This document shows, in pieces, positions 5,347 to 60,000 of a stretch of 64,000 bases of DNA (position 1 is the stretch's first letter; every line of letters begins with the position of its first letter). The position numbers and the translations under genes were made by a program. A model generated the notes under the pieces. The model had not been told where the DNA came from. It saw only the letters and a program-made list of their open reading frames with translations, and searched no databases. The stretch comes from a phage, in sequence record OM867527.1. One strand, written 5' to 3'.

Positions 5347-5363
5347 TAGTCCGAAATAAAACA

Positions 5364-5383
5364 AGGGGGACATAAGTCCCCCT
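5364..5383. terminator. stable hairpin after the capsid gene (terminator or attenuator; orientation ambiguous)
   Basis: AGGGGGAC-ATAA-GTCCCCCT, perfect 8-bp stem; the T-rich tract lies on the minus-strand side and the plus-side tail is A-rich. Confidence 0.45.
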
Positions 5384-5413
5384 CTTAATAAAACTAAATG
5401 AACCACAGGAAAT

Positions 5414-6122: not shown

Positions 6123-6965
6123 ATGATTATGTCTTGTTCTGCTGAGGTAGAAGCTAACCGACTCCTTGAAGAGTTGACTAAGGGTGATGACTTTACCCTT
6201 CCTGATATTGATATGTCTGGTCCTGAGTGGGATATCCCTGGTGGGGATGGTTCTCCAATCTTTGGTGCTATTGATAAAGTAACCAACGAATCTCTTACTA
6301 CCCGTGAAGTAGGTGGTAGTGGTACGTTTGATGCATTAATGGAATCTGCACACAACCATCTTAAAGCTGAGTTTAAGGCTAACCGTATTACAGGTGGTGA
6401 ATATACCAAAGCATACATTGCTATGATGGAATCATGCATGAGTAATGCTGTTCAGTTCTTACTTGGTCGTGACCAGGCATACTGGGCTGCTGCATTGGCA
6501 CAGATTCAGGCAGTTACTGCTCGTGTTACATTGGCTACTTCTAAAGCTCAGTTTGTACTGGCTAAGCTTCAGGCATTATCTGCTAAGAGTGAATATGCTC
6601 TCACTAAGATGAAGATTGCTACTGAGTCTGAAACGTACTGTGCTGCATTGTTTAATGTCAATCAGATGTTACCTCAACAGCTTAAGCTTATTACTGAGCA
6701 AACCGAGTCACAACGTGCACAGACACTAGATACTCGTACTGATGGTGCAGTAGTTAAGGGTTCTGTAGGTAAACAGAAAGAACTGTATTCCCAACAGATT
6801 ACTTCTTATCAGCGTGATGCAGAAGTTAAAGCATCTAAGCTGTTTACTGATGCATGGATTACTCAGAAGACTATTGATGAAGGCTTGAATCCACCGAATG
6901 GCTTCACTAACGCAAGTATTGATACCATTCTAACCAAGCTGAAGTCTAACAACGGGTTGAACTGA
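6123..6965 (+). CDS. hypothetical virion protein (280 aa; N4 gp54-like by position)
   Basis: ORF in the structural block between capsid and vRNAP; Gln/Ala-rich helical composition. Confidence 0.4.
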
Positions 6966-22931: not shown

Positions 22932-22937
22932 ATGAAA

Positions 22938-22970
22938 AAGCCCCTCATTAGAGGGGCTTTAATTTTATTG
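22938..22970. terminator. bidirectional rho-independent terminator between convergent genes
   Basis: 10-bp stem AAAGCCCCTC/GAGGGGCTTT, loop ATTA, A-tract upstream and T-tract downstream; lies between the vRNAP stop and the stop of the minus-strand gene 23041-23433. Confidence 0.6.
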
Positions 22971-23040
22971 GCTTTTTAAGCCTTACTACTTTGTCGGGTA
23001 GTTCAGTACCTTTCGGTAAAAACTACCTTACACCTTTGGG

Positions 23041-23433
23041 TCAGATTGTACAACCACCACCGTCACAGGTGTTGTTTTCTACAAAGGAAGCCAAAGCCTT
23101 AGCAGTCTCTTCTTTTTCATGAAGTGCCTGACGTAGCAGGTAACCTTCTAATTCCCAAATCTTATTGAATGCATTTTCATATGCATACTGACGACCTTTT
23201 TGCTCATCATAGATAGCCGGGTCTACACAGGCAGATACGCCTTCAACTTTGAAGCCATTCTCCAGGATGATAATGCAATGGGTTGTCAGACCCAGGTTAG
23301 CCAAATCATCTGCTGGGAGAGCAGAAGGGTCAACGAATGCAGACTTCACTGCATCAGCACCATTGAAATAGTAAACGCTCTTAATCTTAGCTTCGATTGC
23401 TTCTTTACTTACTGTTGCCATTATTAGCCTCAT
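23041..23433 (-). CDS. hypothetical protein (130 aa)
   Basis: Last gene of the minus block; GAGG RBS about 8 nt upstream of the ATG. Confidence 0.5.
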   Translation of the reverse strand: MRLIMATVSKEAIEAKIKSVYYFNGADAVKSAFVDPSALPADDLANLGLTTHCIIILENGFKVEGVSACVDPAIYDEQKGRQYAYENAFNKIWELEGYLLRQALHEKEETAKALASFVENNTCDGGGCTI

Positions 23434-23480
23434 AGAGTGGTTTGAATTTGTACTTAAACATGATTGCGTTCATCAATACT

Positions 23481-23510
23481 CAAATAAAAAAGTCCCTCCG
23501 AAGAGGGACT
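23481..23510 (-). terminator. rho-independent terminator (minus strand)
   Basis: Minus-strand reading: AGTCCCTC-TTCG-GAGGGACT followed by TTTTTTATTTG. Confidence 0.55.
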
Positions 23511-23737
23511 TAGTAGCTTTAACGCAGCTAACGAGGCTAGGCCAGTTAACTATTACCACCGGTGCTTGTACCAGCAAACAGGATTGATAGTCCGATAATA
23601 GTTAACTGTAATTGAGCATTATAGTCTGCTCATACTCACACCGTTAGGTATGTTTACAATAACTAGAGTGCCGGACTGTCTCACCGGCATTGTCTTTAGA
23701 GTGCAATGCAATCAGGACTATGTTCTCTATTAATGAG

Positions 23738-23822
23738 TACCCACTACTGGATTTGAACCAGTGACCACAGACACCTTGTTCTCTCGAAGCTTTCCTGCGC
23801 TCTACCACTGAGCTAAGTGGGC
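23738..23822 (-). tRNA. tRNA-like gene with non-canonical anticodon region (possible pseudo-tRNA)
   Basis: Minus strand: 7-bp acceptor stem GCCCACT/AGTGGGT, canonical D-arm GCTC-AGTGGTA-GAGC, T-arm ACTGG-TTCAAAT-CCAGT. The 35 nt between D- and T-arms cannot be folded into a 5-bp stem / 7-nt loop anticodon arm in any register. Confidence 0.4.
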
Positions 23823-25336
23823 ATAAATAGGCGAGTCATGCCAGACTTTAACTGGCTCCTTCTTCGCAATCCTTACATACCCCTACATAATTATTGCGTT
23901 AAGCTTTTTTGTTTAAGTTTAAATGAAGGCGTTCTTGCTGACTCATAATTAGGTTTCCTACTTGCATGGGCTTCCACCATATCATGACGAGTTTGAGACT
24001 GCGGAGCGTCTACCTCTATGCTGTTACCAGCCACCGGTAAACCGGCGTTCTGTGGTCCATCGTCTTCAATCATGTTGTCTTAACCATATAGGGATTCAGG
24101 CAACTATGACGGCAAGTAGGAAATTGGTATTAATGTCTTGGTTTCATGAAGATTTTAGGTTAAGTGTACCAAGACATCAAATAAGGTGGGCGTTTGACGA
24201 ATGACTAGTTCGTTACTACCCGTTTGCCATAAGTACCTGGCGACTTCAAATAACGGGGGATGGAATCGAACCACCAGTATTAAGTCTTATTCGTGCACCA
24301 AGCACGCTAGTGGTTTTACCCACCGGAGGGAATCGAACCCCATCTACTTCACCAGACCCGTCTTAATTCTTCCAATTCAGGGTAGCACTGTCGAGGTGTG
24401 TTCTTTGAATGCCAGGAAACATTTAAAGATACAGTGCTACTTTGAATTAATTGCCAGGGATTTCACCTGGCTCCATCTGTTTTTATAGTCACTCAGATAT
24501 CGTCTGGACTTTGATAGTACAACCTATCAAAGAGTACACTAAGCACAGGTAGCTACCCTGCCGTCTTCTCCACCTACACCGGCTACAGTGTAAACCTCCG
24601 CACGTTAGCCTAATGTACTCATTGATAGGATGTCATAATAGGGGAGGGATGACGAGTCCCTCTTTACCCTATAATTTAGTTTACATGTAAGACCTAACAT
24701 CTCGATGCTGGATGAATAGCTTAATGAACTATCCGACATTATTGGTTAATGTTGTGCTCAACACGAGCGTTAGTTGATAAGGGATCTGAAGCCTTATCCT
24801 AAAGATACTAACCTTTGGGATATAGCCTAAGATTCAGAAATGGCCTCTATAGGGAGAGGCCATTGATTAACCCGAATGTTGCTTTACATTTGCTGTGATA
24901 ACCCATTCTTAAAATAGTCTACCTGACGGATGGGCATAAACCCTAGCGTCAGTGCCATACGGCAAAGATTAAGTTAAGAATGGTTATGATAGGAGTTCCT
25001 ATCTCAAAGGATTCTAACAGAACCCTTCACGATATTAACTATTCAATGTGAAATTCTTTGTTTCCTTCAACAGGTTCTACATCCAAGAAAAAGCTAACTT
25101 TTCCACTTAGTTTAGATTGAACCAATGGACTGGGGAGAGTATTCCAATCCACTGGTTCTGTTGTTGTTACTCTGGCGGCTTGTCACCACCGTTTTTATCA
25201 CTGAGTTTCCAAAGTATAAGCACAGTGATGATAAATGCTATGTATGGAGCCGACACGTCCAGAATCCTGATAAGCAATAGCATCAGAATTACGAACACTA
25301 CCACAAATAGCAGCAGCTTCTGAGCCACCTACCAGA

Positions 25337-25777
25337 TTAACTACGTTTAAGGCCAGCGAACAGCGAAGGCTTAGTAGCAGGTTTCTCTGCTGGTTCTTCA
25401 GCCTTAACTTCTTCCTGCACAACTTCTTCTTGTGCTTCTGGTTCAGATACTGCTTCTTCTTCAGGTTCCGGCGTAGAATTCCCGTTCGGACCACCAGTAG
25501 AGGTCTGGGTTTCTTCTACCTTTAGCTCTCCAACTACTTCTTCCGGCTCCGGTTCTACCGGGCGGTGTTTGGCTTCTTGAGGGTTCTTACGGGAACGACG
25601 AGTTTTCTTCTCTACTCCCACGGGTGGAGTATCTTCATGAACCTCTTCGTTGATACCAACGGAGGCAGTACCATCTGCATTGATGACAATATTAATGTCA
25701 CCAGCAAGATTGATTTGATCATCGACATAAGCTTGTACAGCAGCTTCTACTTCGGACTGGTTCAAAATGATTTGCAT
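25337..25777 (-). CDS. hypothetical acidic protein (146 aa)
   Basis: ORF on the minus block; Glu/Pro-rich C-terminal half. Confidence 0.45.
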   Translation of the reverse strand: MQIILNQSEVEAAVQAYVDDQINLAGDINIVINADGTASVGINEEVHEDTPPVGVEKKTRRSRKNPQEAKHRPVEPEPEEVVGELKVEETQTSTGGPNGNSTPEPEEEAVSEPEAQEEVVQEEVKAEEPAEKPATKPSLFAGLKRS

Positions 25778-25778
25778 G

Positions 25779-26333
25779 TTACGCCTTTATTAAATTAAGG
25801 AGGTTTTGGAAAGCTGGGAGATTTACACCAGCATGGATTGCACCGATTGCATCTGCTAAGTGCTCATTCTTATTAAGAAGTTTGCCCTTCTTATCAGTGA
25901 GCCAGTTGGCTTCAGGATAGATGGCATGAGCAGCACGAATCATCGTGTCCTTAGATGCTGTTTTATCACCGACCAGTGCAAGTTTGTTTTCAATTGGGGA
26001 TACTTCAAAGATTGGACAACCCAATGCACGAAATGCACCGATTAATCCTACGCATACGCCATAGGATTTCATACCATTAGCAGACTGAGAGCCTACTGGT
26101 ACTTCTACGAATACTGCTTTAGCAGACCGTAACCATTTCTCACAACCAAGAAACAAATCATGAGCGGCTTGTATATCTTTGGAGTTGGTTCGAACTTGTT
26201 TGTTGTGGTCAACTTCAGTTTGAACCAGTTTAAGTTCGACCTGCTCGAAGACGCCGGACTCAATGTCCAGCATCCCACGAGCTAAACCCCAATTGCGGAG
26301 ACTAATGTCTGCACCAACAATTGGGATTTTCAT
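25779..26333 (-). CDS. RuvC-like Holliday-junction resolvase (putative)
   Basis: N-terminal IVGADISL and C-terminal HLADAIGAIHAG resemble RuvC-fold catalytic regions (recalled DAADALA-type motif); next to the SSB gene. Confidence 0.4.
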   Translation of the reverse strand: MKIPIVGADISLRNWGLARGMLDIESGVFEQVELKLVQTEVDHNKQVRTNSKDIQAAHDLFLGCEKWLRSAKAVFVEVPVGSQSANGMKSYGVCVGLIGAFRALGCPIFEVSPIENKLALVGDKTASKDTMIRAAHAIYPEANWLTDKKGKLLNKNEHLADAIGAIHAGVNLPAFQNLLNLIKA

Positions 26334-27136
26334 TAACGTTTACCGAACAGTGATTTACCACCAGCAGGGGTAGTACCCGTGCCAGCACCTGCACCTGGTT
26401 TAGGAGGCAAGCCACCTTTACCATTACCACCAGCAGAACCCTTGGTCTTATCACGAGTTTTGCCTTTGTTCTTTTCAAGCCATGCTGCGTAGAATACAGC
26501 CAGTTCTGGGGTCAGTTCTTTCTCAGCCTTCTCTGCTTCCTGAGCCTCGACGACTGTGACCAACAGTTCCGGATGAAACACTTTCTGAATCTCATTTACT
26601 TCACGAGTTTCACCGGAGTCAACGTAACCGTTGTCTCCTTTAACCTGCTTGGATTCCAGAACTTTTTCCAGAGCGAAGGTAACAGTCTGACCTACCAGGT
26701 CAACTGGAACCATGACAGATTTATTAACTTCTGCTTTAGCGTCGTAGTCGTAGACTTTGACAATCTTCTCTTCGAAGTCTGCTTCAGGCAGTTCAGTACC
26801 GGTAGCCATCAGCATCATGTCGTTAATGACAGTGTAACCAGGCAAGAAGTATTCTTTACCGTTCTTCTCGTAAGTCGGCTTGTTACCCTTAGCATTACCA
26901 GAAGTGAAGTACACCTGAGCACGGAACTCACCGGCAGGTACGCCATCAGAGTTCTTCAGGTCTTCAATAATTAACTGCATCCAGTCTGCACCAGAGTCAG
27001 CTTTACCTACGTAAGCTACTTTTACAGTACCGGTGTAGATATCGGATTCTTTTACACCGAAGCCGCCACCACCCAGAGAGTCTTTAGCAGCTTCAACGTT
27101 TTTGGTTTTTTCTTTCAGATTACTGAACAATGACAT
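26333..27136 (-). CDS. ssb: single-stranded DNA-binding protein (N4 gp45-like)
   Basis: 267 aa (N4 SSB is ~265 aa by recall); Gly/Pro-rich flexible C-terminal tail; located in the replication module after primase and ATPase. Confidence 0.5.
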   Translation of the reverse strand: MSLFSNLKEKTKNVEAAKDSLGGGGFGVKESDIYTGTVKVAYVGKADSGADWMQLIIEDLKNSDGVPAGEFRAQVYFTSGNAKGNKPTYEKNGKEYFLPGYTVINDMMLMATGTELPEADFEEKIVKVYDYDAKAEVNKSVMVPVDLVGQTVTFALEKVLESKQVKGDNGYVDSGETREVNEIQKVFHPELLVTVVEAQEAEKAEKELTPELAVFYAAWLEKNKGKTRDKTKGSAGGNGKGGLPPKPGAGAGTGTTPAGGKSLFGKR

Positions 27137-27175
27137 ATGATTTTCCTAATAAGTGATTAACAACCAGGCAAACGC

Positions 27176-27928
27176 TTAAGCGTAGTATTCAGCCAGATGG
27201 TCTAAGAGTTTCTGGGCATCGTTATCAATGTAAGTCTCGGACTTATCGAACATACCCATTGGGGAACGAAGTCGTTTACCAACAGACTTCTTAGTTGGAC
27301 GGGTCTGGAATACGTGCTTATACCCTAAGTCACGTTCTTCTTCCGTAATTTCTAACATCTTGTTTCCATACTTCTCCAGTTCTTTAATGTCTACACGCTC
27401 TGCGTAAACTACTGTAGAGAAGTAGGCTTCAAGCCCGTTATTCTTAAGAGAACCTTTCACTGGGATGAACGTTTTCATCACACCAGCAGCTTCATCAAGT
27501 TCGTCTTTAGCATGAGCAGTAATAATTACTGGCTTACCAAACTTAACGACTTTTTGTTGCAGCAGTATCTTAAAGAACTGTGCAAAATCTCCCCATGCTT
27601 TCTGCGTATTTGCAGAAGGCAGAACATACTGGGATTCCAGCATATCCATCATAAAGGTTGCTGAGTCAATGATGATACCATCAACATCATCTGCCATTTC
27701 TCCACCAGGAGATGCAACATCAAATGCTTCCCAGATTTGGTATGGGTCTTCGATGTTGTAGGTATTGAATTTGTTACGGAAAGGTAGACGCTTACCTGCT
27801 TCAGTATTCAGATAGAGCCAGCGTTCCTGGTTCCGGATATTACGCAGTGATGCTGATTTACCACTCGCTGAGAATCCTGCAATCAGGATTAGCTGAGTGT
27901 TCATATCATTGGGAATTACTTCGGACAT
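27176..27928 (-). CDS. RecA-like P-loop ATPase (Sak4/AAA_24-like)
   Basis: Walker A GFSASGKS near the N-terminus and Walker-B-like GIIIDSATF; ~250 aa, typical of phage Sak4-type ATPases. Confidence 0.5.
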   Translation of the reverse strand: MSEVIPNDMNTQLILIAGFSASGKSASLRNIRNQERWLYLNTEAGKRLPFRNKFNTYNIEDPYQIWEAFDVASPGGEMADDVDGIIIDSATFMMDMLESQYVLPSANTQKAWGDFAQFFKILLQQKVVKFGKPVIITAHAKDELDEAAGVMKTFIPVKGSLKNNGLEAYFSTVVYAERVDIKELEKYGNKMLEITEEERDLGYKHVFQTRPTKKSVGKRLRSPMGMFDKSETYIDNDAQKLLDHLAEYYA

Positions 27929-27984
27929 TATTTTTCCTCATTTAATTTAGGAGTCCTTCAAACCAAGGAAAGACTCCTGTTTGC

Positions 27985-30138
27985 TTACTTGCCAGCGAAG
28001 CGTTTAGCCACGGTGACCATTACGGTTGCATTCAATTCATCATCTGGCAATGGATTAGCCAGTTTCTTATTGAATGAGTGGACGGCTTGCTGTACTTGGG
28101 CAAAATCCCAACCACTGTCAACCAATGCCAGTGCGTACTTAATCATTTGATTATTACGATTACCGGTAGCAATACGACTAGCGAACCAACGCTCCAGATT
28201 ATCCAACGACTGTACTTTCTTCATCTGGTTCTGGAACTGCTCGTTCTTACTAGTACGAGGAATAAAGTCACGCACGTCCAACAGATTTGCTTCAAGATTG
28301 TAATGATAGGAACCAGTCTCGCAGGACATCCACTTCTTGGCTCGCTGGTTAGCAGACTCATCCGTTTCGAATGGTAACCAAGACATGACGTTATTCATGA
28401 ACTCTTTGTATTCCTCAGTATCGAGGTGTAACTCATAGTTCATTGGAATAATCAGTCGGAATCGGTTCTCTTCATCAGAATGACGTTTAGTGGTATAGGT
28501 CATGAACTTATATTCCTTCATCAGTTCATGGCACGTATGCAGTGGTACTCCACCATCACAGTCAATAACAATCATGTTAAATCCTGGAATAACGTTCTCT
28601 TCAGAACGATGCCCATTCTTCATGTGATGGTTTACCCAGTGCATACCGGAAGCTTGGGTTAATACATGCAACTGGTCGAACGGTACACGTTCACCAATGT
28701 AGTCATAAGCAAAGCTATCACTATATGCCACTATCATCTCATTGATGTCAGTTTCCTTCAGAGTTTCCCCACGGAAGAACTCAATACCTTCGTTGAAGGT
28801 TTTCTTAATGATGATGTGCTGTTTGTAACCCCATGCTGTAGCAAGAGTCATCATCTCATTACGAGCTGCATTGCCACTCTTATAGAATGGCAATGACTCT
28901 AGTAAATCAGCATGAGTCACTTCTTTACCTACAGAGGCAATGTACTTAGCCAGCTTCACATAGGCTTTCTCACGATTGAGAATACCCTGGAATGCTGCCC
29001 CAGATTCCTCTACAAGCAGAATTGCTTGTTTAAGATGAGACATTTCAATGAATGAACTCTGGTCAACAAACGCCAGTGCTCCAGCCAGTTTAAGTGCTTT
29101 AAAGTAACGGTGGGAGATTTCGGCCTTACGAATTTCTTCGTGGTCAGCCATAGCTTCTGCTTGTTTCTCACAATCAATTTTGTAAGTAATCAGAGCAATA
29201 CCCACAGCATCTTCCACAACCATCTTAAAGCCGAACAGGTTTGGGTCAGCCAAACTATGGAAGTGATTAGCCCACTTACCTAGAGACTGTACGTTATCCT
29301 GCTTAATCAGGTTACGGTAGATTTCTTCTGGAGACATTGTTGCATGTGCTCGCTTGTCTAAATGCCCAATGGCAAACAGACAGCGACGTGCATACCCTGT
29401 ATCCAGAAAGTCATAGAACTGGTCTTCAGTCTGACCACCATCTAGCAGCTTACTTGGCGTACCAAACAGCAACAGGTTAGCTGGAGTCTTACCATCCAGT
29501 TCTTCACCACGAACGCTTTCAGCAGTGTTCTTGGTTAACTTCTGTTTAACTTTACCCTGGTCATATAGTTCCAGGAACAGGGTTAACACATCCGTGTTAG
29601 CTAACAAGTTTGAACCAATTTCATCAATCTGAAGGTTGATTGAACCACACCCAGCCATTAACAGCTTATGACGTAGTTGTTTAACTGCCGGGGGAGTACC
29701 AGAGTCAAATGTAAATGGGTATGCCCCAGCACGTTTATACTCTGCTTCAACTTTATCAAACTCATCATTCTGGTCTGTACCTTGTCGAGCAGCACGTTCG
29801 TTAGCAATCTTCCATAAACGGTCATTTGCAATGACAGGCATGGTGTCTTCCATAAAACGTTTACGGAAGCCAGTCATGAACCCGTCTTCAATAATATTTA
29901 CCGAGTGACCTTTACCGAAGCCAGACGTTGCTAATGCCATAGCGTAAATGTTGACTGGTAAGTCACCACGGTCTTTAGTGACAATGGTTGCACCCATGCA
30001 GGATGCCATTTTAGCCAGGAAGTAGGCTACTTCGACACGGAAGAATCCTCTGTCGTTGTTTTGTGTCTTGTTACACAACACATCTACAATTTCTTCAATT
30101 GCAGGGTGGTGAGTGACTCCGGTCAGGTCAATACTCAT
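27985..30138 (-). CDS. DNA primase, archaeo-eukaryotic primase (AEP)-like domain (N4 gp43-like)
   Basis: AEP motif I-like MIVIDCDGG (hhhDxD) and downstream PLHTCH. Start placed at the ATG (30138) that overlaps the upstream nuclease stop as ATGA; the longest ORF would start at 30195. Confidence 0.45.
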   Translation of the reverse strand: MSIDLTGVTHHPAIEEIVDVLCNKTQNNDRGFFRVEVAYFLAKMASCMGATIVTKDRGDLPVNIYAMALATSGFGKGHSVNIIEDGFMTGFRKRFMEDTMPVIANDRLWKIANERAARQGTDQNDEFDKVEAEYKRAGAYPFTFDSGTPPAVKQLRHKLLMAGCGSINLQIDEIGSNLLANTDVLTLFLELYDQGKVKQKLTKNTAESVRGEELDGKTPANLLLFGTPSKLLDGGQTEDQFYDFLDTGYARRCLFAIGHLDKRAHATMSPEEIYRNLIKQDNVQSLGKWANHFHSLADPNLFGFKMVVEDAVGIALITYKIDCEKQAEAMADHEEIRKAEISHRYFKALKLAGALAFVDQSSFIEMSHLKQAILLVEESGAAFQGILNREKAYVKLAKYIASVGKEVTHADLLESLPFYKSGNAARNEMMTLATAWGYKQHIIIKKTFNEGIEFFRGETLKETDINEMIVAYSDSFAYDYIGERVPFDQLHVLTQASGMHWVNHHMKNGHRSEENVIPGFNMIVIDCDGGVPLHTCHELMKEYKFMTYTTKRHSDEENRFRLIIPMNYELHLDTEEYKEFMNNVMSWLPFETDESANQRAKKWMSCETGSYHYNLEANLLDVRDFIPRTSKNEQFQNQMKKVQSLDNLERWFASRIATGNRNNQMIKYALALVDSGWDFAQVQQAVHSFNKKLANPLPDDELNATVMVTVAKRFAGK

Positions 30139-51356: not shown

Positions 51357-51971
51357 TTACTTCCAGGCCCACTTAAAGCCTTTGTATGTTTTGGGGTTAT
51401 AAATATGACCTCTGCCATCCTTCACAGGGATACCATTGGCTACCGTTATAATACCCCACGTTCTACCACTTACATGGCGTGCAGCATCTGCTGTAGTAAC
51501 AAATTCTTTATAGAATGTACCGTCTAGGTGATAGGCGATAACAGGTTGTGCAGTGGCAATGTTACCTTCTTTCTTGCTACGTGCTCCTTTATCCCTATTC
51601 TCTTTCCAGGACATTAGTTGAATGTTATCCAGAGTATATGGTTTTTGGTCATCTATACGGTCTACAGATGGTTTATAGTCTTTTGCATAGTCACTCGCTA
51701 CATAATCATCCCATAGTTGATGAATATTTGGTTGTTTATCCAACCATTCATAGAAATCTTCTAGTGAATAGTTGGGTGGTGGGTGTCCTCTTTTAATAGA
51801 GTGAGATAGTTGAGTTAGATAAGTCTTCCTGAACATACATACCGGGTCGGCTTTGTTATACCTCAAAGTCCGACATTTACGGCACCGTACCTCATAACCG
51901 TCTTTGCAGGTTGATTTTGGTACGAACTCTGTGAGGTCTTTTGTTTCCCCACAGTCCTTGCAGATTTTCAT
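51357..51971 (-). CDS. zinc-ribbon / HNH-like endonuclease (free-standing homing-endonuclease-like ORF)
   Basis: N-terminal CxxC...CxxC cluster; VDRIDDQKPYTLDNIQLMSWKENRDKG matches the HNH_3-type pattern HHIDxN...NL.L.....EN but with the His-His pair replaced by Asp-Arg; sits between the two RNAP II subunit genes. Confidence 0.4.
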   Translation of the reverse strand: MKICKDCGETKDLTEFVPKSTCKDGYEVRCRKCRTLRYNKADPVCMFRKTYLTQLSHSIKRGHPPPNYSLEDFYEWLDKQPNIHQLWDDYVASDYAKDYKPSVDRIDDQKPYTLDNIQLMSWKENRDKGARSKKEGNIATAQPVIAYHLDGTFYKEFVTTADAARHVSGRTWGIITVANGIPVKDGRGHIYNPKTYKGFKWAWK

Positions 51972-52786
51972 TAGTCCTCCACGAGTTCTTTATGTGCGAA
52001 CTCTATTACTGCCTTATTCCATGAAGTACCCGCATAATTAATATGGTAACCACAGGCATATGTACGCCCACGTTTGTCATATTTGTGAGCCAGAGAGAAA
52101 TTATTACCTTCTTTGGTCACTAACTCCATTACTTCCTTAGCTGTACGACTGTATTTCTCAAAGGCTTTGACTCGTTTCTCATATTCCTGACGGGTTTCAC
52201 CTTCTTTTGGTTTATCCATGTTAGGACGAGAGTCTTTTACGTAGTTAGCAACGTCCCAGTTAATGCAGAGACGTTGATTGTTCATACGGTTGATGTGGTC
52301 AAGACAGACATCCATCTCATGATGGTTCTTCTTGAGGATGATGCTACCCCTGCTTTCGTAGTAACCAGTATCACGGTTACATTTAACAGGCTTAGGAGCA
52401 CTTACGATAGGCAATGGATACTGGAATGCTTCTAGTTCCATCTGTACATCTTCACTAATCTCATAGATAACACCGAACTTGTCGATGGTAGGGTCATAGT
52501 TGAAGCAGTCATTCTCTGCCATCTTATACAGACAGTCAGCGATGTACTGAGCATCATCTGAGTGACTCATAAGAGAGCCAATCATAGTCTGAATGTCAGC
52601 ACGTTTATGTAGGGCAATCTGCACCATTGCATCAATGAGCAGCTTATAATCAATTTCCAAATAGGCAGCGAATGCCTTAAAGTCAATTTCTTCGGAGTCC
52701 TCGAATTCCTTCCTCATGCGAGGGAGTAATTGATTCTTGTTGAAAAGGATTTCAAGTCGCTTCTGATGTTCAATAGATGAGTACAT
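51971..52786 (-). CDS. phage RNA polymerase II small subunit (N4 gp15-like, T7-like RNAP N-terminal half)
   Basis: DxRGRxY-like motif YDKRGRTY near the C-terminus; 271 aa; upstream of the catalytic subunit. Confidence 0.6.
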   Translation of the reverse strand: MYSSIEHQKRLEILFNKNQLLPRMRKEFEDSEEIDFKAFAAYLEIDYKLLIDAMVQIALHKRADIQTMIGSLMSHSDDAQYIADCLYKMAENDCFNYDPTIDKFGVIYEISEDVQMELEAFQYPLPIVSAPKPVKCNRDTGYYESRGSIILKKNHHEMDVCLDHINRMNNQRLCINWDVANYVKDSRPNMDKPKEGETRQEYEKRVKAFEKYSRTAKEVMELVTKEGNNFSLAHKYDKRGRTYACGYHINYAGTSWNKAVIEFAHKELVED

Positions 52787-52806: not shown

Positions 52807-53040
52807 TTAAACAATACTTGCTATTAGAGTCCTAGTTTTATGTTCACTAGCACATCGGTAATACATTCTTATGTAGTTTCCATGGAAGTTATGTCTCCAT
52901 GCCCACGGGAAGGGTAGTTCTACTTCACACCAGTTATTAGGGCTTTCATATGCCCCTTTAACTGCTTCTTTAATCTTTGGATAATTACCCCATTTATGTT
53001 TATGTTTCTTAGCTATGATTTGCTGAATTGATACCGACAT
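52807..53040 (-). CDS. hypothetical protein (77 aa)
   Basis: Small ORF upstream of the RNAP II genes. Confidence 0.35.
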   Translation of the reverse strand: MSVSIQQIIAKKHKHKWGNYPKIKEAVKGAYESPNNWCEVELPFPWAWRHNFHGNYIRMYYRCASEHKTRTLIASIV

Positions 53041-53067
53041 TGCATATCCTTAAGCTGCGGAGCAGCT

Positions 53068-53418
53068 TTAACTCCAGTAGTTGTAAGCATCACCTAAGTA
53101 TTTACGCCATGCTTCTGGTAACAGCACGTTGCCAGTGACATTAATGAACAGGTATGGGTCCATAAAATCCATTCTCATTACTTTGAAATCCCATTGCGGA
53201 TTAATAGATGCATAAGCAATAAAACCCTCAATGAAGCCATAAATAGCACCTTCTTTGATCCGGTCACCACTACCATCTCTTACCGGAATGGCGAAGCTAT
53301 TACCATAATGACCATAGGCCATTCCCCATCGAGCACCATGCTTCTTATAAGCTAATTTGGCAGCAGCATTAGTATGCTGCCCTAGTGTATTGGTAGTGAA
53401 TACTAAGATTTCTTTCAC
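53068..53418 (-). CDS. hypothetical protein (116 aa)
   Basis: Member of a translationally coupled small-gene operon (4-nt ATGA overlaps). Confidence 0.4.
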   Translation of the reverse strand: MKEILVFTTNTLGQHTNAAAKLAYKKHGARWGMAYGHYGNSFAIPVRDGSGDRIKEGAIYGFIEGFIAYASINPQWDFKVMRMDFMDPYLFINVTGNVLLPEAWRKYLGDAYNYWS

Positions 53419-53612
53419 ATTAATCCCCTTACTTCTTTATAGAATTTAATAGCATCTTCCTGAGTTTCAGGCTTAACTTCATAAACACAGTCAAGAGCTT
53501 GTTCATGGTCACGTTGCTCCTTCTTTGTTCGGCAATGACCACATTTACCATCCCATTGGGATACATGGCCTTTACCACATTTACATTGCTTATCCATTTG
53601 GATTCTCCACAA
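53415..53612 (-). CDS. zinc-ribbon protein (65 aa)
   Basis: CKCGKGHVSQWDGKCGHCRTK gives a CxC...CxxC metal-binding pattern. Confidence 0.4.
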   Translation of the reverse strand: MWRIQMDKQCKCGKGHVSQWDGKCGHCRTKKEQRDHEQALDCVYEVKPETQEDAIKFYKEVRGLM

Positions 53613-53970
53613 AGTAGTTATACATAGCCTTTACTAGCTTCTCTTTAATAACCTCACCATGACATGGTTTTGGATAACAGAAGCACTGTAAGGCTAATCC
53701 TTTCTCGTCAATGGCTTTATTACCAAGACGATTTAATTCATCCAGTACAACTGGATTCTTCCTCATAATTTGTTCATTAAGCCATACTCGATATTTGGCT
53801 ATAACCTGTTCTCTTGAACCGTCTTTACCAATGACAAATGGATTGCCTAATGGTGAACCACGTCCAATATATTCACCGGATTTACCGTGATGTTTATTAA
53901 CAATAATGATTGGACGTGCAGATACACCTAGTAAAGCATTGGTGTCGTCACCTAATGACATAATCTTCAT
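53590..53970 (-). CDS. DUF4326-like protein (126 aa)
   Basis: YIGRGSPLGNPF matches the signature I recall for DUF4326. Confidence 0.35.
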   Translation of the reverse strand: MKIMSLGDDTNALLGVSARPIIIVNKHHGKSGEYIGRGSPLGNPFVIGKDGSREQVIAKYRVWLNEQIMRKNPVVLDELNRLGNKAIDEKGLALQCFCYPKPCHGEVIKEKLVKAMYNYFVENPNG

Positions 53971-54281
53971 GGCTTAAGTACCTGGAATGGGAACACAGGA
54001 CGTTTACTACTCCACTGGTTCATAGCTAATTCACTAGTTTCAGAACCATCATGTAAGTCGTAGATAAATGAAATTACATAGTCTGGTTCTTCCGGGAAGT
54101 TTTCTGTAGAGAAGGGTAGACCTGATTCCTTAAGAATAGGGACTAGAGGAGAATCAGCATTACAATAGAGGGTAAACTCTTCATTGAATGCTTGGCTTGT
54201 CTGAGATACATAATCAATATTACGCATCATCTTATCTACATCAGTAAATGTAGAATCATGTACTACTAGAATAGTTTTCAT
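53967..54281 (-). CDS. hypothetical protein (104 aa)
   Basis: 4-nt overlap with neighbours in the small-gene operon. Confidence 0.4.
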   Translation of the reverse strand: MKTILVVHDSTFTDVDKMMRNIDYVSQTSQAFNEEFTLYCNADSPLVPILKESGLPFSTENFPEEPDYVISFIYDLHDGSETSELAMNQWSSKRPVFPFQVLKP

Positions 54282-54469
54282 ACTGGCTCCTTGCCTGTAA
54301 ATGCTACTACTTTTCCTGACATATTTCGTATGGTTACCTGTGCTGAGTTAACATCAGCAAATTGCTCTGCAACCCAATTAAGCATCTCAGGTTCATTATT
54401 TAATTGTTTGTTAATCACCGTTTTACTATCTGCTGTTACTAAAGTGATTTCATAATTTTCAATATTCAT
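54278..54469 (-). CDS. hypothetical protein (63 aa)
   Basis: 4-nt overlap with neighbours in the small-gene operon. Confidence 0.35.
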   Translation of the reverse strand: MNIENYEITLVTADSKTVINKQLNNEPEMLNWVAEQFADVNSAQVTIRNMSGKVVAFTGKEPV

Positions 54470-54723
54470 GATACTTTCTCCAAAGTTAAGTAAGTCTTAT
54501 TATCTTCAGGCACATAATTACAAATACCAATCTCTTCCTGCCTTCCTTTAGATACCCAAGTACCTTCAGCAGTTAGTTTGGGCTTTCTTGCAAAACCCAT
54601 AAGAGAAGAGTTATTACTAGTATATGTACGTGGTAACAGGGCAACATATTTAACCCATAAAGGTATTGCAATTGTTTGCCCCATGTAATTGAACGGTCTA
54701 CAGGTAGGGTATGTAATAATCAT
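54466..54723 (-). CDS. hypothetical protein (85 aa)
   Basis: 4-nt overlap with the downstream gene. Confidence 0.35.
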   Translation of the reverse strand: MIITYPTCRPFNYMGQTIAIPLWVKYVALLPRTYTSNNSSLMGFARKPKLTAEGTWVSKGRQEEIGICNYVPEDNKTYLTLEKVS

Positions 54724-55080
54724 TTAGTACCTCACAATATATACAGGTTTATTTAGCCTCTGCATGATATCAATCATGTGCTTGGTTCCTTTGGATTTAC
54801 CATCCCAGAAACATACAGCAGCATCTGCAAATTCCCCCATTTCTTTATTCCTACGGAATCCAGCAGACTTGCCATAGGTATCCCATTCAGCAGGGAAGAA
54901 ATGTATTTGCATATTCGCAGATTTCCATAGATAGAAAGCTCTTATATCTGCACCACGAGCCATACCACATACTAATTCTGGGCATTCAGGTATACTTCCT
55001 GAATTTACTAACTTCTGTAGTTCCTCAACCATACGATTGGTATCAGTGAAGTCACGTCCACCAGCTACAATTAGTTTCAT
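54724..55080 (-). CDS. SLOG/DprA-like Rossmann-fold protein (DUF2493-like, putative)
   Basis: LIVAGGRDF and GMARGADIRAF resemble the DprA/SLOG signature (GLARGID) as recalled. Confidence 0.35.
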   Translation of the reverse strand: MKLIVAGGRDFTDTNRMVEELQKLVNSGSIPECPELVCGMARGADIRAFYLWKSANMQIHFFPAEWDTYGKSAGFRRNKEMGEFADAAVCFWDGKSKGTKHMIDIMQRLNKPVYIVRY

Positions 55081-55298
55081 TTCTGATAACCCTCTATGAA
55101 GTTAGTACGACGAATAAGCTGAGTAGATGCCTTAACGGCTGTCTTCTTGAACTCATCTTTGTGTTGGTTTTCCAATATCTTATCCCATTCTTTCTGGTTC
55201 CGTTGTTTCTGTAGAATACGACTACACTTCTTATGATTAGCAACTCCTTTACGTTTGCTACATACAGGGCAAACACCATAATCAGTTGAGTACATCAT
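55077..55298 (-). CDS. zinc-finger protein (73 aa)
   Basis: CPVCSKRKGVANHKKC CxxC...HxxC pattern; 4-nt overlaps on both sides. Confidence 0.35.
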   Translation of the reverse strand: MMYSTDYGVCPVCSKRKGVANHKKCSRILQKQRNQKEWDKILENQHKDEFKKTAVKASTQLIRRTNFIEGYQK

Positions 55299-55603
55299 TG
55301 GCTTAAAGCCTCCAGTAATATTTTACGAATAACATTTACGTCAGATTCAGTACCAATTAAGCCAACAGGCTTACCTGTACTATCCATTACAAAGGATGCA
55401 ATCCTTTCCATCTCTGCTGTAATTAACTTGTCACCACTAATAAGACGATTACGAAGGTAAGCTTCATAAGCTACCTCTACATCTTCTACCGTGGTTCTTT
55501 CATTACGAGTGAATGGATTGCTTAATGGGAATGGTAGGTGGATACGTATATTCCGGTCAGCTATCTTAGCTGAATGTGGAAGTATACAAACAATTTCATT
55601 CAA
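55295..55603 (-). CDS. hypothetical protein (102 aa)
   Basis: First gene of the 53068-55603 coupled operon. Confidence 0.4.
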   Translation of the reverse strand: MNEIVCILPHSAKIADRNIRIHLPFPLSNPFTRNERTTVEDVEVAYEAYLRNRLISGDKLITAEMERIASFVMDSTGKPVGLIGTESDVNVIRKILLEALSQ

Positions 55604-55685
55604 GGTTATTTCTCCTATTTAAATACATATCTAACTATTCAAGAATAAAAAATAGAAGCCCTCCTAATGGAGGACTCCTTACAGT

Positions 55686-56747: not shown

Positions 56748-57128
56748 TTAGAAAGTCAGTTTACGAGCATATTTATTCTCGTCTGCTGGGATGTCAGCAG
56801 CCTCTGCTTTCACACGACGAAGTTGAACTTGCAGGTTAATGATACCTTCCTCACCTGGTTCCAGGTTCTGAGCATATGCAATTAACTGTTCAAGCAAGTC
56901 ATTCTGTGCACAACGCATAGCACGGAAGTCAGCATTGCTGCTATTAGTAGGCAGCGGTTCCTGAGTATCCAGTGGAATACCAGTAGGCAGAGAGATGAAT
57001 TTCTCATCATCAGAGCCTTCGTTAGCTACATAACCAATGTTCAGCCAGAACTGAGCTTTAGGCTTATCAGTTTTAGCAGTGGTAGCAGCAGCGTTAAATT
57101 GACCGAAAGTGAATTTTTGAATAGACAT
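56748..57128 (-). CDS. hypothetical early protein (~126 aa)
   Basis: Start placed at MSIQKF with a GGAGAG RBS (the longest ORF extends to 57227). Confidence 0.4.
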
Positions 57129-57311
57129 TTTGTACTCTCCAGATAAATGATTGTTTGATTTATGGGTTTGTCCGTCGGTGACTAAACCCAAGAAAAGACT
57201 TAGGATTTCGATAAGAAGTGGATTCATTCTTATCCTTTAGACGCGGAGCGTCTTGGTTTTTAGAAGTAGAAGTAAAGTAGATAGTTATCTACTTTTGACT
57301 ATCTATCTAAT

Positions 57312-57349: not shown

Positions 57350-57673
57350 TTAGTCTTTAGTCAGGATGTCAATTACTTTGGAATATTCTGCGTTATAGAT
57401 ACGAGCGTTCTCTGAATCCTTGCAGAATTCCTCAATACTTTTCTTACGCAGAGTCTCAGTCATAGCTGTTTCCTCTGCCAGTTTATTAACAAAGGTATGC
57501 ATTTCTAATTTAGTACGAATGGCTTGTTTCTCTGCCATAGTACTTACATATGAATTAAGCATACCTACTGCTTTAGTTGCTGTACTGAATGTATCTGCAA
57601 CAGTAGTAGCAGCTGAGTTAACAGTACCAAGTAAAGTTCCTGCGGTCATACGTACAGTAGCTTGAGTAGTCAT
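57350..57673 (-). CDS. hypothetical early protein (107 aa)
   Basis: Thr/Ala-rich N-terminus; sits downstream of the 550-bp structured intergenic region. Confidence 0.4.
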   Translation of the reverse strand: MTTQATVRMTAGTLLGTVNSAATTVADTFSTATKAVGMLNSYVSTMAEKQAIRTKLEMHTFVNKLAEETAMTETLRKKSIEEFCKDSENARIYNAEYSKVIDILTKD

Positions 57674-58222
57674 GATGATAGCTCCAATAGTTGATGATAG
57701 GACGACATGTCCATAACATGCGGAGCATGTGTAACGTGTAAGGTGGGGTAGGGTAGTGGCTACACCGTCAACATACCGGGGGGGCTAGTTGAGTGTAAGG
57801 GTGTAGCCCCAGCCACACCACTATAGCCATGCATAACTATCACAATTTTGACATGCAAAAATATTATAGGCACTGTCTCTATAAGCAGATAACTTTGAGG
57901 TACTAACATGAAAGATGGATGGGGTAACTACAATCCTACAGACCCTGAGAACTGGTTGCACTTTATTGCCTGTGCTTGTGCTGTAGGATTCATAGGTATT
58001 GTACTCTTGTCACTGGTTCTACCTTATTTATAAATACTATGGGGGATATCTATCTATCCCCTATTCATCGTAGCGTTTGATACTTAAAACCTCATATAGC
58101 CTACCATTTACAAGCAATGGTCCACCTACTTCTATGAAAGCTAGGCTGTGTACTATCACTGGTTCAGAGGAATAATGCAGTAAGTTAGTACCTTTCATTC
58201 CTAATAGTTTAACGTTCATGCT

Positions 58223-58507
58223 TCAGTACCTTTCCTTATAGATTGGGGTGTTGTTCTCGAAGGATAGGATGTACTTGTCTGTATTGAGATGCCAAGGGCT
58301 AAAGCTACCCTGCCAGGACATTGGTGTACCTGGTTCAAGTAGATGTACTACCGAATTCTTATTGTATAGGAAGAGTAATCCTTGTATCTCATGTAGGGAC
58401 TGTTCATCTGGAACCAGGATAAGTACATCAGCATTCAGGTCAGCTATTTCTTTATGGAGGATGTAATTTTCCCCATTAGGCTCTGGATAAATTTTACTGA
58501 TAACCAT
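58223..58507 (-). CDS. early small protein, paralog family member (94 aa)
   Basis: Shares the motif VLILVPDEQSLHEIQGLLFL and an MxIxxIY-type N-terminus with four neighbouring ORFs. Confidence 0.5.
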   Translation of the reverse strand: MVISKIYPEPNGENYILHKEIADLNADVLILVPDEQSLHEIQGLLFLYNKNSVVHLLEPGTPMSWQGSFSPWHLNTDKYILSFENNTPIYKERY

Positions 58508-58827
58508 TAGAGACTCTTGCCGCTAGATAAATATGAGGTAGAAGGGTAGAGGGTAATAAGCCTGCCAGTTAAGGTAGTTACTACCATAGGTTCATTTTCA
58601 GAGAGTATGTACACGGAGGTGTGTTCCGGTATTTCCACGGAATCTACTATCTTAATGAATTGGATAGGTTGCCCTAACATTAAGCAAGTACCTATGAACA
58701 CATCTGCTTCTTCACTTGGCTCATACAAGATGGCAGTAACTCTACCCTTACCTGCCAGAATATTATCCAATGTGTATGGGGATAAATAGCAAGTAGTGGC
58801 AAAGCTAATCAGGCAATACAGGTGCAT
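58507..58827 (-). CDS. early small protein, divergent paralog family member (106 aa)
   Basis: TAILYEPSEEADVFIGTCLMLG aligns to the family motif but lacks the His-Glu pair. Confidence 0.4.
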   Translation of the reverse strand: MHLYCLISFATTCYLSPYTLDNILAGKGRVTAILYEPSEEADVFIGTCLMLGQPIQFIKIVDSVEIPEHTSVYILSENEPMVVTTLTGRLITLYPSTSYLSSGKSL

Positions 58828-58830
58828 ATC

Positions 58831-59145
58831 TTACTTCCTTACATAGTAGTAACGGTATTCCCCCTTCTCATAACGACTCTCCCACTGATAGTCATCAGAT
58901 ACCATCATGTATGGGATAGGGTCATTAGCGTTATAGTTGGTATAGACAGAAGGAGGAATGATACATACAACCTTACGATCAATACCTGCTAAGAAAAGTT
59001 GACCCCTTACTTCATGGTAGTCCTCTAGAGCAGGAACTAAGATTACTTGATGAGGATTACTGCATATGACTTCTTCTAAAGTGAAGTCAGTTGTATACAT
59101 AGGCTCCCTTTCATCATAGCTGGGGATGGTCATTATGAATTTCAT
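58831..59145 (-). CDS. early small protein, paralog family member (~105 aa)
   Basis: Motif VILVPALEDYHEVRGQLFLAG; start placed at MKFIMTI with an AAGGA RBS (longest ORF starts at 59208). Confidence 0.5.
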   Translation of the reverse strand: MKFIMTIPSYDEREPMYTTDFTLEEVICSNPHQVILVPALEDYHEVRGQLFLAGIDRKVVCIIPPSVYTNYNANDPIPYMMVSDDYQWESRYEKGEYRYYYVRK

Positions 59146-59509
59146 GATTGATTTTCCTTCCTTTAGGGATAGGTCTGAAGTAAATGGAAAGTGTTTTATT
59201 AAAGACATTATGGGCAGCTATCAATTCCCAACCAGGTATTTTATAGAAACGTATACCAGGGAAGAACTCTTTGAAACCGTCATAACAGGTGAGGTCATAC
59301 ACCTTTGGTTCGGTAAGTATCTCGGTATTGAGTTGTAGGTTTGCTAAGAAGAGAGAGCCAACAATCTCATGGGATTCTTCACAGTTAGGTAAGAACACAG
59401 ATTGCCAGGGAGCAATGAACTTACTTACTGTTTCTGGTTCCCCAAGTAGATAAGGTTCTTGCTTATGAAGTACTCCGGTAATATCAATATCAAAAGCGTA
59501 GATGCTCAT
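59114..59509 (-). CDS. early small protein, paralog family member (131 aa)
   Basis: Motif SVFLPNCEESHEIVGSLFLANL; AGGAGG RBS; preceded by a hairpin and U-tract. Confidence 0.5.
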   Translation of the reverse strand: MSIYAFDIDITGVLHKQEPYLLGEPETVSKFIAPWQSVFLPNCEESHEIVGSLFLANLQLNTEILTEPKVYDLTCYDGFKEFFPGIRFYKIPGWELIAAHNVFNKTLSIYFRPIPKGRKINHEIHNDHPQL

Positions 59510-59523
59510 ATTTGCATACCTCC

Positions 59524-59561
59524 TGAAAAAGAAATGGGGTAGAGCCTCTCGACTCTACCCC
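59524..59561 (-). terminator. hairpin plus U-tract directly upstream of an early gene (terminator/attenuator-like)
   Basis: 9-bp stem GGGGTAGAG/CTCTACCCC with an 8-nt loop; on the minus strand it is followed by ATTTCTTTTTC, then AGGAGG and the ATG of gene 59114-59509. Confidence 0.4.
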
Positions 59562-59709
59562 TTACCGTTTTCTATCACGGGTCAGTTCATCACCCTAGAT
59601 ACATGTGTATCGTTAGCCTACTAGGTAGGAAAGGAGCCGGGCAACCCTGACTGTAGAAGTTATTAACTCTTTACGAGTACCGCCACTGTCTACTAGGCGG
59701 CATGACTAA

Positions 59710-60000
59710 TCACATCGTCACCGTCATCCGAACACTGTCTTTGCTTCGCCTGACGGAGACACTATGAGGTAATTTTGTGAAGAACACAAGAGCTGAAAGG
59801 CGTTTTTCTAAAGAGTAAGTTTCTCTTGGTTCTAAGATTTTAATGCCTGGACGATTCTCTAAAAGCATCATCCCAGCTAATTCATGGTAGGTGTCTTCAT
59901 CATGTGTGATAATAATGTCATCTGAGAGAATACCAGCTTTAGTGTGGTCTAGTTCTTTGTATTCATCTTTAGAGTCCTGGACTCTCATATAGATTCTCAA
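59710..60000 (-). CDS. early small protein, paralog family member (96 aa); first gene of the minus block
   Basis: Motif DIIITHDEDTYHELAGMMLLEN and N-terminus MRIYMRV match the family. Confidence 0.45.
   Translation of the reverse strand: MRIYMRVQDSKDEYKELDHTKAGILSDDIIITHDEDTYHELAGMMLLENRPGIKILEPRETYSLEKRLSALVFFTKLPHSVSVRRSKDSVRMTVTM

Follow-up and report, generated by a model that had tools for sequence, protein, structure and literature searches.

Three promoters of the virion RNA polymerase (vRNAP), P1-P3, have been mapped in coliphage N4 (PMC4496689). The small N4 genes gp9-gp14 lie between the terminator after gp7 and P3. We analyzed a 64,000-nucleotide stretch of phage DNA (sequence record OM867527.1; below, the window) with a comparable run of ten small genes, here called O1-O10, on the minus strand at 52807-55603. 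Gene order and protein similarity identify this block, which lies in the left, first-injected arm of the genome, as the Gamaleyavirus (G7C-type) counterpart of N4 gp9-gp14. N4-type early blocks are of a kind already described, and this one is one more coherent example. First noted here are the putative DUF4326 paralogue O10, the putative SLOG-like fold of O5, the apparently degenerate macro-like protein O2, and fusions in other phages of O4-type proteins to homologues of O8 and of O3.

Associations of SLOG, Macro, NADAR and DUF4326 domains have been predicted to process ADP-ribose in DNA viruses (PMC9503650, 2022; PMC7824862, 2021). The same domain families co-occur in the block analyzed here. 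It differs from the viral associations of Iyer, Burroughs and Aravind in that the domains are encoded by separate, overlapping small genes and not by fusions, NADAR is missing, O10 and O2 look catalytically dead, and a putative Zn-ribbon partner (O3) is included. The published role is itself a prediction.

Two other described systems are close to the block. Phage DruSM1 plates less well on AVAST type III when its DprA/Smf-like SLOG gene, ORF83, is deleted (bioRxiv 10.1101/2024.04.14.589459). Like O8, ORF83 is a small stand-alone phage protein of the SLOG superfamily, and it is the only one that we found with an experimental anti-defense phenotype; EVADES models it as an AMP phosphoribohydrolase of the LOG-like type. 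Fedorova et al. 2026 (bioRxiv 10.64898/2026.06.04.730250) described an accessory hotspot in N4-like phages, with anti-defense activity proven for Acb4-Sequestin, Bes1, Bes2 and Tad. That hotspot is at a different locus, between the primase and vRNAP genes (~22.9-28 kb in the window), and none of its families match O1-O10. In the literature searched, we found no experimentally established function for DUF4326, for stand-alone YAcAr-type SLOG proteins or for the N4 gp14 family. The block puts all three in a compact unit of a tractable coliphage family (N4/G7C), and its value lies in the concrete hypotheses that it offers for DUF4326, viral SLOG proteins and N4 gp14.

The block corresponds to N4 gp9-gp14

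Escherichia phage HK2 (PP514361.1; a G7C-like, N4-type member of Schitoviridae, Enquatrovirinae, Gamaleyavirus) matches the 3-kb region at 100% identity, and the window is the HK2 record offset by 258 nt. A further 81 records match the region, mostly at 80-95% identity. Early and middle genes of HK2 are on the minus strand, from ~60 kb down to 23 kb; the vRNAP and structural genes are on the plus strand.

We found that the HK2 block resembles N4 gp9-gp14 in position, gene order, P3 stem-loop and style of gene overlap. By BLASTP, O10 is 74% identical to gp9, O5 81% to gp11, O4 92% to gp12, O3 63% to gp13 and O2 46% to gp14. The flanking genes match N4 gp1 and gp2, which the block follows, and gp15 and gp16, which it precedes. 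Phage KP8 keeps the same gene order. In contrast to N4, HK2 lacks gp8 and gp10, has O9, O8 (the SLOG gene), O7 and O6 between its gp9 and gp11 orthologues, and has O1 after P3. Its gp14 orthologue also lacks the IPTKD lysine and the RIGCGLAG loop.

Part of the block changes rapidly between relatives. O9, O8 and O7, which N4 does not have, are present in G7C-like phages; Klebsiella phage KP8 shares O8 and O7 with them and lacks O9. O6 was found in 11 records only, all Gamaleyavirus-type. Phage 24-32N has O1 (96% identity), Mimir124 and KP8 have divergent forms of it, and PBM-3, St11Ph5 and ECBP1 lack it. Relatives carry other small inserts (ORFs of 86, 127, 74, 80, 81, 76 and 58 aa), to which no function was assigned. 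Based on this distribution, the block is best described as a conserved Enquatrovirinae core with small accessory genes that turn over rapidly.

The original prediction, made from the letters of the window, had described about ten minus-strand open reading frames (ORFs), and ten are present at the positions given here. Compared with five Gamaleyavirus relatives, dN/dS was 0.03-0.39 for all ten, indicating purifying selection and hence real genes. O5, O4 and O10 had values of 0.03-0.14, about the level of the small subunit of phage RNA polymerase II (RNAPII; 0.04-0.07); O5 was the most constrained gene in the block, and the ranges for O4 and O10 were 0.03-0.13 and 0.08-0.14. The fastest-evolving genes were O8 (0.13-0.31), O9 (0.17-0.24) and O3 (0.26-0.39). 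The range for O7 was 0.07-0.19.

The genes are tightly packed. Six 4-nt stop/start overlaps had been predicted (53415/53418, 53967/53970, 54278/54281, 54466/54469, 55077/55080 and 55295/55298), and each is exact, five of them being ATGA and one, from O3 to O2, GTGA. O4 and O3 overlap by 8 nt (ATGGATAA), and O8 and O7 abut (TAAATG), so that eight of the nine junctions overlap or abut. The sole separated pair is O2 and O1, 27 nt apart. A Shine-Dalgarno-like purine run is located 5-12 nt upstream of all ten start codons. The overlaps are compatible with translational coupling, as had been proposed. Among 77 same-strand junctions in HK2, 12 have a 4-nt overlap, and six of these 12 are among the nine junctions of the block (Fisher p = 2.6e-4; p = 1.4e-3 against junctions between small genes only), a test that is weakened by the post hoc choice of region.

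Predicted transcription signals bound a nine-gene block

The ten genes had also been proposed to form a single operon. Our results do not support this: a P3-type hairpin lies between O2 and O1, and a terminator-like hairpin lies directly before O10. The block proper consists of nine genes, O10-O2 (53068-55603), between the terminator-like hairpin (55654-55679, minus strand) and the P3 hairpin (53052-53068, plus strand). Scans found no minus-strand terminator-like sites or hairpin promoters within O10-O2. Because the P3-type hairpin separates it from O2, we group O1 (52807-53040; 77 aa), a variable small gene, with the RNAPII genes; by this predicted signal it belongs to the P3-RNAPII transcription unit and not to the nine-gene block. 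The first conserved gene after P3 encodes the RNAPII small subunit (51971-52786, minus strand; 65% identity to N4 gp15, 4.7e-135). The RNAPII genes are 65-68% identical to N4 gp15 and gp16, in agreement with the original placement of the block upstream of them.

The promoter-type hairpins were found by scanning the whole 64 kb for perfect hairpins with 3-nt loops. N4 vRNAP promoters have been defined as the template heptamer GCGGAGC centered on a 3-nt loop, with inverted repeats that form a 5-7 bp stem; template bases -8G, -9C, -10G, -11G and -12A correspond to this heptamer (PMC4496689). Exactly three hairpins in the window combine a coding-strand TCC loop (GGA in the template) with stems that are rich in G+C and end in GC. 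All three are intergenic, read on the coding strand, have 6-7 bp stems, and are at the positions of N4 P1-P3. The P1 orthologue (57716-57730, plus strand) is upstream of the gp1 homologue (57350-57673), the P2 orthologue (57239-57253, plus strand) is upstream of the gp2 homologue (56748-57227), and the P3 orthologue has the template AAGCTGC-GGA-GCAGCTT, containing the GCGGAGC heptamer. The N4 equivalents are at 95, 564 and 4553, before gp1, gp2 and gp15. The stem-loop at N4 4553 is identical to that of HK2 P3 (AAGCTGC-TCC-GCAGCTT), and the flanks of the HK2 hairpin at 57716 match those of N4 P1 (cacgttacac...tatggacatgt).

P1-P3-type hairpins are kept in four Gamaleyavirus relatives. In KP8, the depositors annotated the equivalent sites as early promoters, and the third carries a compensatory change in the stem. 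On its own, the heptamer is not a rare sequence (4 found, 2.2 expected); only the copies at these three sites have stems. Folded as single-stranded DNA, the three hairpins have energies of -4.7 to -6.4 kcal/mol (P3, -6.4; z = -3.25). By sequence and orthologous position, they satisfy the published definition of N4 vRNAP promoters, and we regard them as predicted promoters.

The terminator-like hairpin before O10 has 11 pairs and a 4-nt loop followed by a T-run, and is within the 82-nt gap upstream of O10. Its fold energy as DNA is -7.1 kcal/mol (z = -4.0). Both the hairpin and the downstream spacer are kept in Mimir124, PBM-3, St11Ph5 and 24-32N, and N4 has an analogous terminator-like hairpin upstream of gp8. 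Terminator-like sites were also found after the gp2 homologue and after the gene for the RNAPII large subunit. An AT-rich sequence before O10, TATTTAAATAGG, is no more than a guess at an RNAPII site.

Between 50000 and 60500, matches to sigma-70-like promoters were depleted (8 found, 30.1 +/- 4.9 expected) and terminator-like hairpins were enriched (17 found, 6.5 +/- 2.4 expected). This bias fits an arm that is transcribed by phage polymerases and has several attenuating terminators, and the depletion of sigma-70-like sites is consistent with independence from the host RNA polymerase. In the N4-like phage LUZ7, terminator read-through is extensive and time-dependent (PMC9163698). The revised map, with a predicted terminator before the block and predicted P3 dividing O2 from O1, should be useful for engineering such phages.

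DUF4326 proteins and their fusion partners

O4 (53590-53970; 126 aa; orthologue of N4 gp12) had been called DUF4326-like, and it scored well above the Pfam cut-off for this family (PF14216; 81.1 bits, cut-off 25; E 9.2e-23). The motif on which the call was based, YIGRGSPLGNPF, is present, and the GNPF and CxCxPxxCHG motifs are intact. These are parts of two longer motifs, G-R-G-S-P-L-G-N-P-F and L-x-C-x-C-x-P-x-x-C-H-G, both of which are in O4 and invariant in 30 fusion proteins described below. DUF4326 was found in 1178 of 50,697 phage records. There was no support for an 'NrdA-like' label for O4.

We found that O10 (55295-55603; 102 aa; TTG start; orthologue of N4 gp9) appears to be a second, divergent member of this family. 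Its match to Pfam DUF4326 is below the cut-off (16.8 bits, E 0.011). It shares phrog_464 with O4, with an O10 match of 1e-16, and BLASTP aligned it with N4 gp12 (5e-8) as well as with N4 gp9 (2.6e-56). O10 keeps PLSNPF and has no Cys/His motif (CxCxPxxCH). Based on these results we suggest that O10 is a degenerate DUF4326 paralogue, and it looks catalytically dead.

Some homologues of O4 are fused to other domains. We took 30 proteins, all but one exceeding 160 aa, from the best 150 of 5929 representative O4 homologues and compared them with Pfam. The partners were YAcAr (7), DprA (2), YpsA (1), cpYpsA (1), NADAR (3), macro (1), DUF488 family models (3-4) and a 3'-5' exonuclease (1). By BLASTP against the HK2 proteins, eight were fusions of an O8-like SLOG domain to an O4-like DUF4326 domain, and seven had an O3-like Zn ribbon N-terminal to DUF4326. 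The survey independently reproduces the SLOG-Macro-NADAR-DUF4326 association of Iyer et al. (PMC9503650, PMC7824862), and adds a putative Zn-ribbon partner.

P0213 is 53% identical to O8 in its N-terminal half and 52% identical to O4. Its gene lies between gp2 and the RNAPII genes of a 69.9-kb N4-like contig, the place orthologous to the HK2 block, and an intact gp14-like gene is located two genes downstream. P0203 combines a DarG-type macrodomain (3.5e-42 to PDB 5m3i) with DUF4326, and its gene adjoins those for thioredoxin and PolA, a family-A DNA polymerase. Because other phages encode O8 and O4 homologues, and O3 and O4 homologues, as single proteins, in one case at the orthologous locus, O8, O4 and O3 most likely act together. 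The fusions single out these three proteins for joint study.

The 69.9-kb contig with P0213 (Logan SRR25400119; L013) is from a distant N4-like phage; its 226-aa SLOG-DUF4326 protein is encoded at 5001-5681 and the gp14-like (macro-like) protein at 6460-6849. The contig has no GCTCCGC hairpins, and its early promoters may differ.

SLOG and SLOG-like proteins

O8 (54724-55080; 118 aa) had been described as SLOG/DprA-like. The SLOG part of this description is borne out by a match to Pfam YAcAr (PF10686; 30.1 bits, threshold 28.2; E 4.3e-7) that is just above threshold. DprA proper is not, as PF02481 gave no match at E <= 1, and O8 is a stand-alone single domain, unlike the multi-domain architecture of DprA. 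PF10686 was found in all 120 proteins listed among 4829 O8 homologues. The motif GMARGAD, noted previously, is present, and AGGRD, GMARGAD and DGKSKGT are invariant or nearly so in the family. 'DprA' labels among O8 relatives hold at the superfamily level only. O8 homologues are present in 1215 of the 50,697 phage records. A 'GTP-binding domain' label for O8 found no support.

In structure, O5 (53967-54281; 104 aa; orthologue of N4 gp11) is matched best by YpsA, a SLOG protein. We suggest that O5 is a minimal SLOG-like Rossmannoid protein, the resemblance being at the level of the modeled fold only. At the sequence level O5 was rejected as a paralogue of O8 (BLASTP E 0.25; hhalign probability 1.3%). 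Neither O5 nor O6 has detectable relatives outside N4-like phages. O5 is labeled 'antirepressor' in PP514361; we found no support for this label, and it looks wrong.

O2 and the gp14 family

O2 (53068-53418; 116 aa; GTG start; orthologue of N4 gp14) matches the NCBIfam family A1S_2505 phage non-structural protein (NF049995; 82.5 bits, cut-off 45; E 2.4e-23) and phrog_2072 (2e-36). The family consensus contains FGSNxxGxHGAGAA, IPTKD and RIGCGLAG. All three motifs are lost in HK2 O2 and its Gamaleyavirus orthologues; HK2 O2 has IPVRD, with Arg for Lys, and an 8-residue deletion in place of RIGCGLAG. In contrast, N4 gp14, KP8 gp019 and the homologue in L013 keep both the IPTKD Lys and the RIGCGLAG loop. 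O2 is under purifying selection despite the loss of these motifs.

The gp14 family appears to resemble the macrodomains of DarG and TARG1, which remove ADP-ribose from DNA thymidine and from proteins. A weak hhalign match placed IPTKD...RIGCGLAG in register with PTKRHW...ALGCGEGGL of a DarG-type macrodomain, and the Lys of the PTK motif is presumably catalytic in the O2 family, by analogy to DarG and TARG1. O2 differs from these macrodomains in being ~30-40 residues shorter, and in HK2 it has Arg for Lys and no Gly-rich loop. Foldseek gave no significant match for O2. A Pfam scan of 56 O2-family members gave no macro match, only weak spurious hits to 5-FTHF cyclo-ligase, and an O2-family profile found nothing relevant in the PDB. 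On the basis of motif alignment and modeling, O2 may belong, in degenerate form, to a DarG/TARG1-like macro family of which N4 gp14 would be an intact member. Intact N4 gp14 and degenerate HK2 O2 offer a natural comparison of presumably active and inactive forms.

The gp14 family has members in 459 phage records and is by no means confined to N4-like phages. An 'ADP-ribosylglycohydrolase' in relatives, which we considered as an extra inserted gene, is simply the O2 orthologue under another label; it falls in phrog_2072 by hmmscan. Its modeled fold is alpha/beta, unlike the helical DraG/ARH type. NAN33P5, a phage named as a Gamaleyavirus, has a full-length gp14-like gene (OZ035750.1, 66308-66685) whose product is 73% identical to N4 gp14, in contrast to the truncated form in HK2. 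In the Rhodobacter phage RcPacific, a siphovirus, a gp14-like protein (L012, 2501-2869) is annotated as 'ADP-ribosyltransferase'.

Candidate Zn-binding proteins and the remaining small proteins

Two Zn-ribbon proteins had been predicted. Both candidates, O3 and O9, have invariant patterns of potential ligands, which stands with the prediction; no Zn-ribbon profile matched either one. O3 (53415-53597; 60 aa from the annotated ATG at 53597, or 65 aa from a TTG at 53612; phrog_13804; orthologue of N4 gp13) has an N-terminal CxC-x11-CxxC that is also found in N4 gp13 and the seven fusion proteins, followed by a variable C-terminus. O9 (55077-55298; 73 aa; G7C gp9.1; phrog_6887, no Pfam match) has CxxC-x8-H-x2-C, which does not vary among HK2 and five relatives (six phages in all), in a candidate CCHC Zn-binding N-terminus, and a basic tail. 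It is plausible that both are small Zn-binding proteins. O1 was considered as a further Zn ribbon, which the results do not support: its GRF-like Pfam match had an E value of only 0.089, and the candidate ligands were not conserved.

O7 (54466-54723; 85 aa; G7C gp9.2) matches phrog_1972 (4.6e-17) and accompanies the SLOG gene in Gamaleyavirus and KP8. O6 (54278-54469; 63 aa), a sporadic accessory gene product, gave a weak match to PHROG 2102 (Dmd; 3e-4 over 30 residues). Dmd is the T4 antitoxin of RnlA and LsoA. Pairwise BLASTP aligned O6 and T4 Dmd in register (5e-4; 28% identity over 29 aa), and the proteins are of similar total length. A PDB search with O6 did not return Dmd, and a BsaWI fragment scored similarly.

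Possible functions of the block

The original prediction proposed that these genes are candidates for host takeover or anti-defense. This is reasonable, and the domain fusions strengthen it. More specifically, the reading that we consider best supported, though with somewhat less than even confidence, is that the block could be an N4-type early set of proteins that bind or dismantle ADP-ribose-containing molecules made by host defenses; it is drawn from the domain content. The O10-O2 set would be made soon after injection, transcribed either by read-through from P1 and P2 or from RNAPII middle promoters. The favored target would be ADP-ribose adducts on nucleic acid (DarT-type modification), and the alternative would be soluble NAD-derived signals. 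DarG, TARG1 and NADAR reverse ADP-ribosylation of DNA bases. Adducts are favored because of the partners of DUF4326 (DarG-type macro, NADAR, exonuclease, Zn ribbon), the neighboring DNA polymerase gene, and the resemblance of the gp14 family to DarG and TARG1. Since the macro-like member in HK2 lacks the presumed catalytic Lys and the phosphate-binding loop, any hydrolytic chemistry would there fall to the trio of SLOG, DUF4326 and putative Zn-ribbon proteins.

Several results weigh against this suggestion. O2 and O10 lack the presumed catalytic residues in HK2, and the trio is not obligatory, since ECBP1 has neither O8 nor O3 and N4 has no O8. No function could be assigned from searches to O1, O6, O7 or O9. 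PADLOC gave no meaningful hit for any of the ten proteins, PDB sequence searches with O2, O4, O8, O6 and the O2- and O8-family profiles returned nothing relevant, and the literature searched contained no experimental function for the ten HK2 proteins or their N4 orthologues. DruSM1 is a Queuovirinae phage, and its ORF83 is likened to O8 by description only, not by sequence. Early expression is also in question: two terminator-like hairpins separate O10-O2 from P2, and we identified no promoter for O10-O2 in the spacer before O10.

The block might instead scavenge soluble immune signals, with O8 and O5 binding or cleaving cADPR isomers from Thoeris-type TIR proteins and DUF4326 stripping phosphates from the products. 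According to predictions by Iyer et al. 2022 (PMC9503650), viral YpsA-clade SLOG proteins break down cADPR-type signals and DUF4326 acts on ribose-linked phosphates, and anti-signaling genes are known in N4-like phages (Fedorova et al. 2026). However, the documented anti-signaling hotspot is the primase-vRNAP interval, no block ORF matches the sponge or signal-degrading families Tad, Acb and Apyc, and the partners of DUF4326 lean toward nucleic-acid enzymes (DarG-type macro, NADAR, exonuclease, Zn ribbon). We consider signal scavenging rather unlikely. Less probable still is a role outside counter-defense, in host takeover or in phage nucleic-acid metabolism (DNA or RNA, nucleotide pools, replication). 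The block does sit in the early arm beside transcription-switch genes, and N4 gp8, in the equivalent N4 unit, reportedly inhibits the host clamp loader, in work attributed to Yano and Rothman-Denes in 2011. O5, O4 and O10 are kept across three genera and match the RNAPII subunit in constraint, a pattern seen more typically in core genes than in arms-race genes. P0203 adjoins thioredoxin and PolA, and DUF4326 has been linked to components of replication and restriction-modification (Iyer et al. 2021, PMC7824862). Macro, SLOG and NADAR partners, however, are hallmarks of ADP-ribose conflict systems, and the turnover of O6, O1, O3, O8 and several inserts between close relatives is typical of accessory regions.

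It is also conceivable, and in our view very improbable, that there is no shared pathway, and that unrelated small accessory genes overlap through genome compaction among very short genes. The commonest type of overlap genome-wide in HK2 is indeed 4 nt (12/77 junctions), membership of the block varies between relatives, and several members (O5, O6) lack relatives detectable beyond N4-like phages. Against this, the O8 and O4 homologues and the O3 and O4 homologues have been fused repeatedly, once at the orthologous locus, the combination of SLOG, DUF4326 and macro-like proteins recurs in distant N4-like phages, and the enrichment of overlaps holds when only small-gene junctions are compared (p = 1.4e-3).

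Returning to the suggestion that the block acts on ADP-ribose-containing molecules, a bolder form of it would be that the N4-family early module undoes ADP-ribosylation of nucleic acid, countering DarT-type defense. Then N4 gp14 would act as a minimal mimic of DarG, and the SLOG, DUF4326 and Zn-ribbon trio would be a second, hitherto uncharacterized set of enzymes that recognize and clear ADP-ribose adducts or what remains of them. In G7C-like phages such as HK2, O2 and O10 would have become catalytically dead binders that serve as decoys or sensors. We regard this detailed proposal as unlikely. If true, it would provide the first biochemical function for DUF4326 and viral YAcAr SLOG proteins. 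If counter-defense directed at ADP-ribose is true more generally, the block would be a second anti-defense locus in N4-like phages, beside the primase-vRNAP hotspot.

Other observations in the window

The interval of the window equivalent to the primase-vRNAP hotspot, 22931-27985, includes an unannotated 965-nt gap (24074-25038). Rfam called a tRNA at 23738-23822 (minus strand; 53.9 bits, E 8e-9), where no gene is annotated in HK2; ARAGORN found no tRNA anywhere in the window, despite this call. Neither program found an RNA gene at 52.8-55.6 kb, and the tRNA features annotated under the block in one Klebsiella phage record are accordingly unsupported.

Two further product names in PP514361 look wrong. 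The 3600-aa vRNAP (12129-22931, plus strand) is labeled 'DNA polymerase', and the gp2 homologue (56748-57227, minus strand), a single-stranded DNA-binding cofactor in N4, is labeled 'RNA polymerase subunit A'. The deposited record is circularly permuted. By analogy with N4, in which P1 is at nt 95, and from the terminal repeat of Mimir124, the physical left end is probably near 57.9-58.0 kb, a short way upstream of the P1 hairpin, which would place the six minus-strand ORFs at 58061-60000 at the right end of the genome.

A gene for a 204-aa endonuclease of the HNH/AP2 type (51357-51971, minus strand) lies between the two RNAPII subunit genes and overlaps the upstream one by 1 nt. Relatives have either a different, 168-aa HNH protein at this spot (Mimir124) or unrelated ORFs of 53-79 aa, and N4 has none. 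The spot looks like an insertion site for homing endonucleases.

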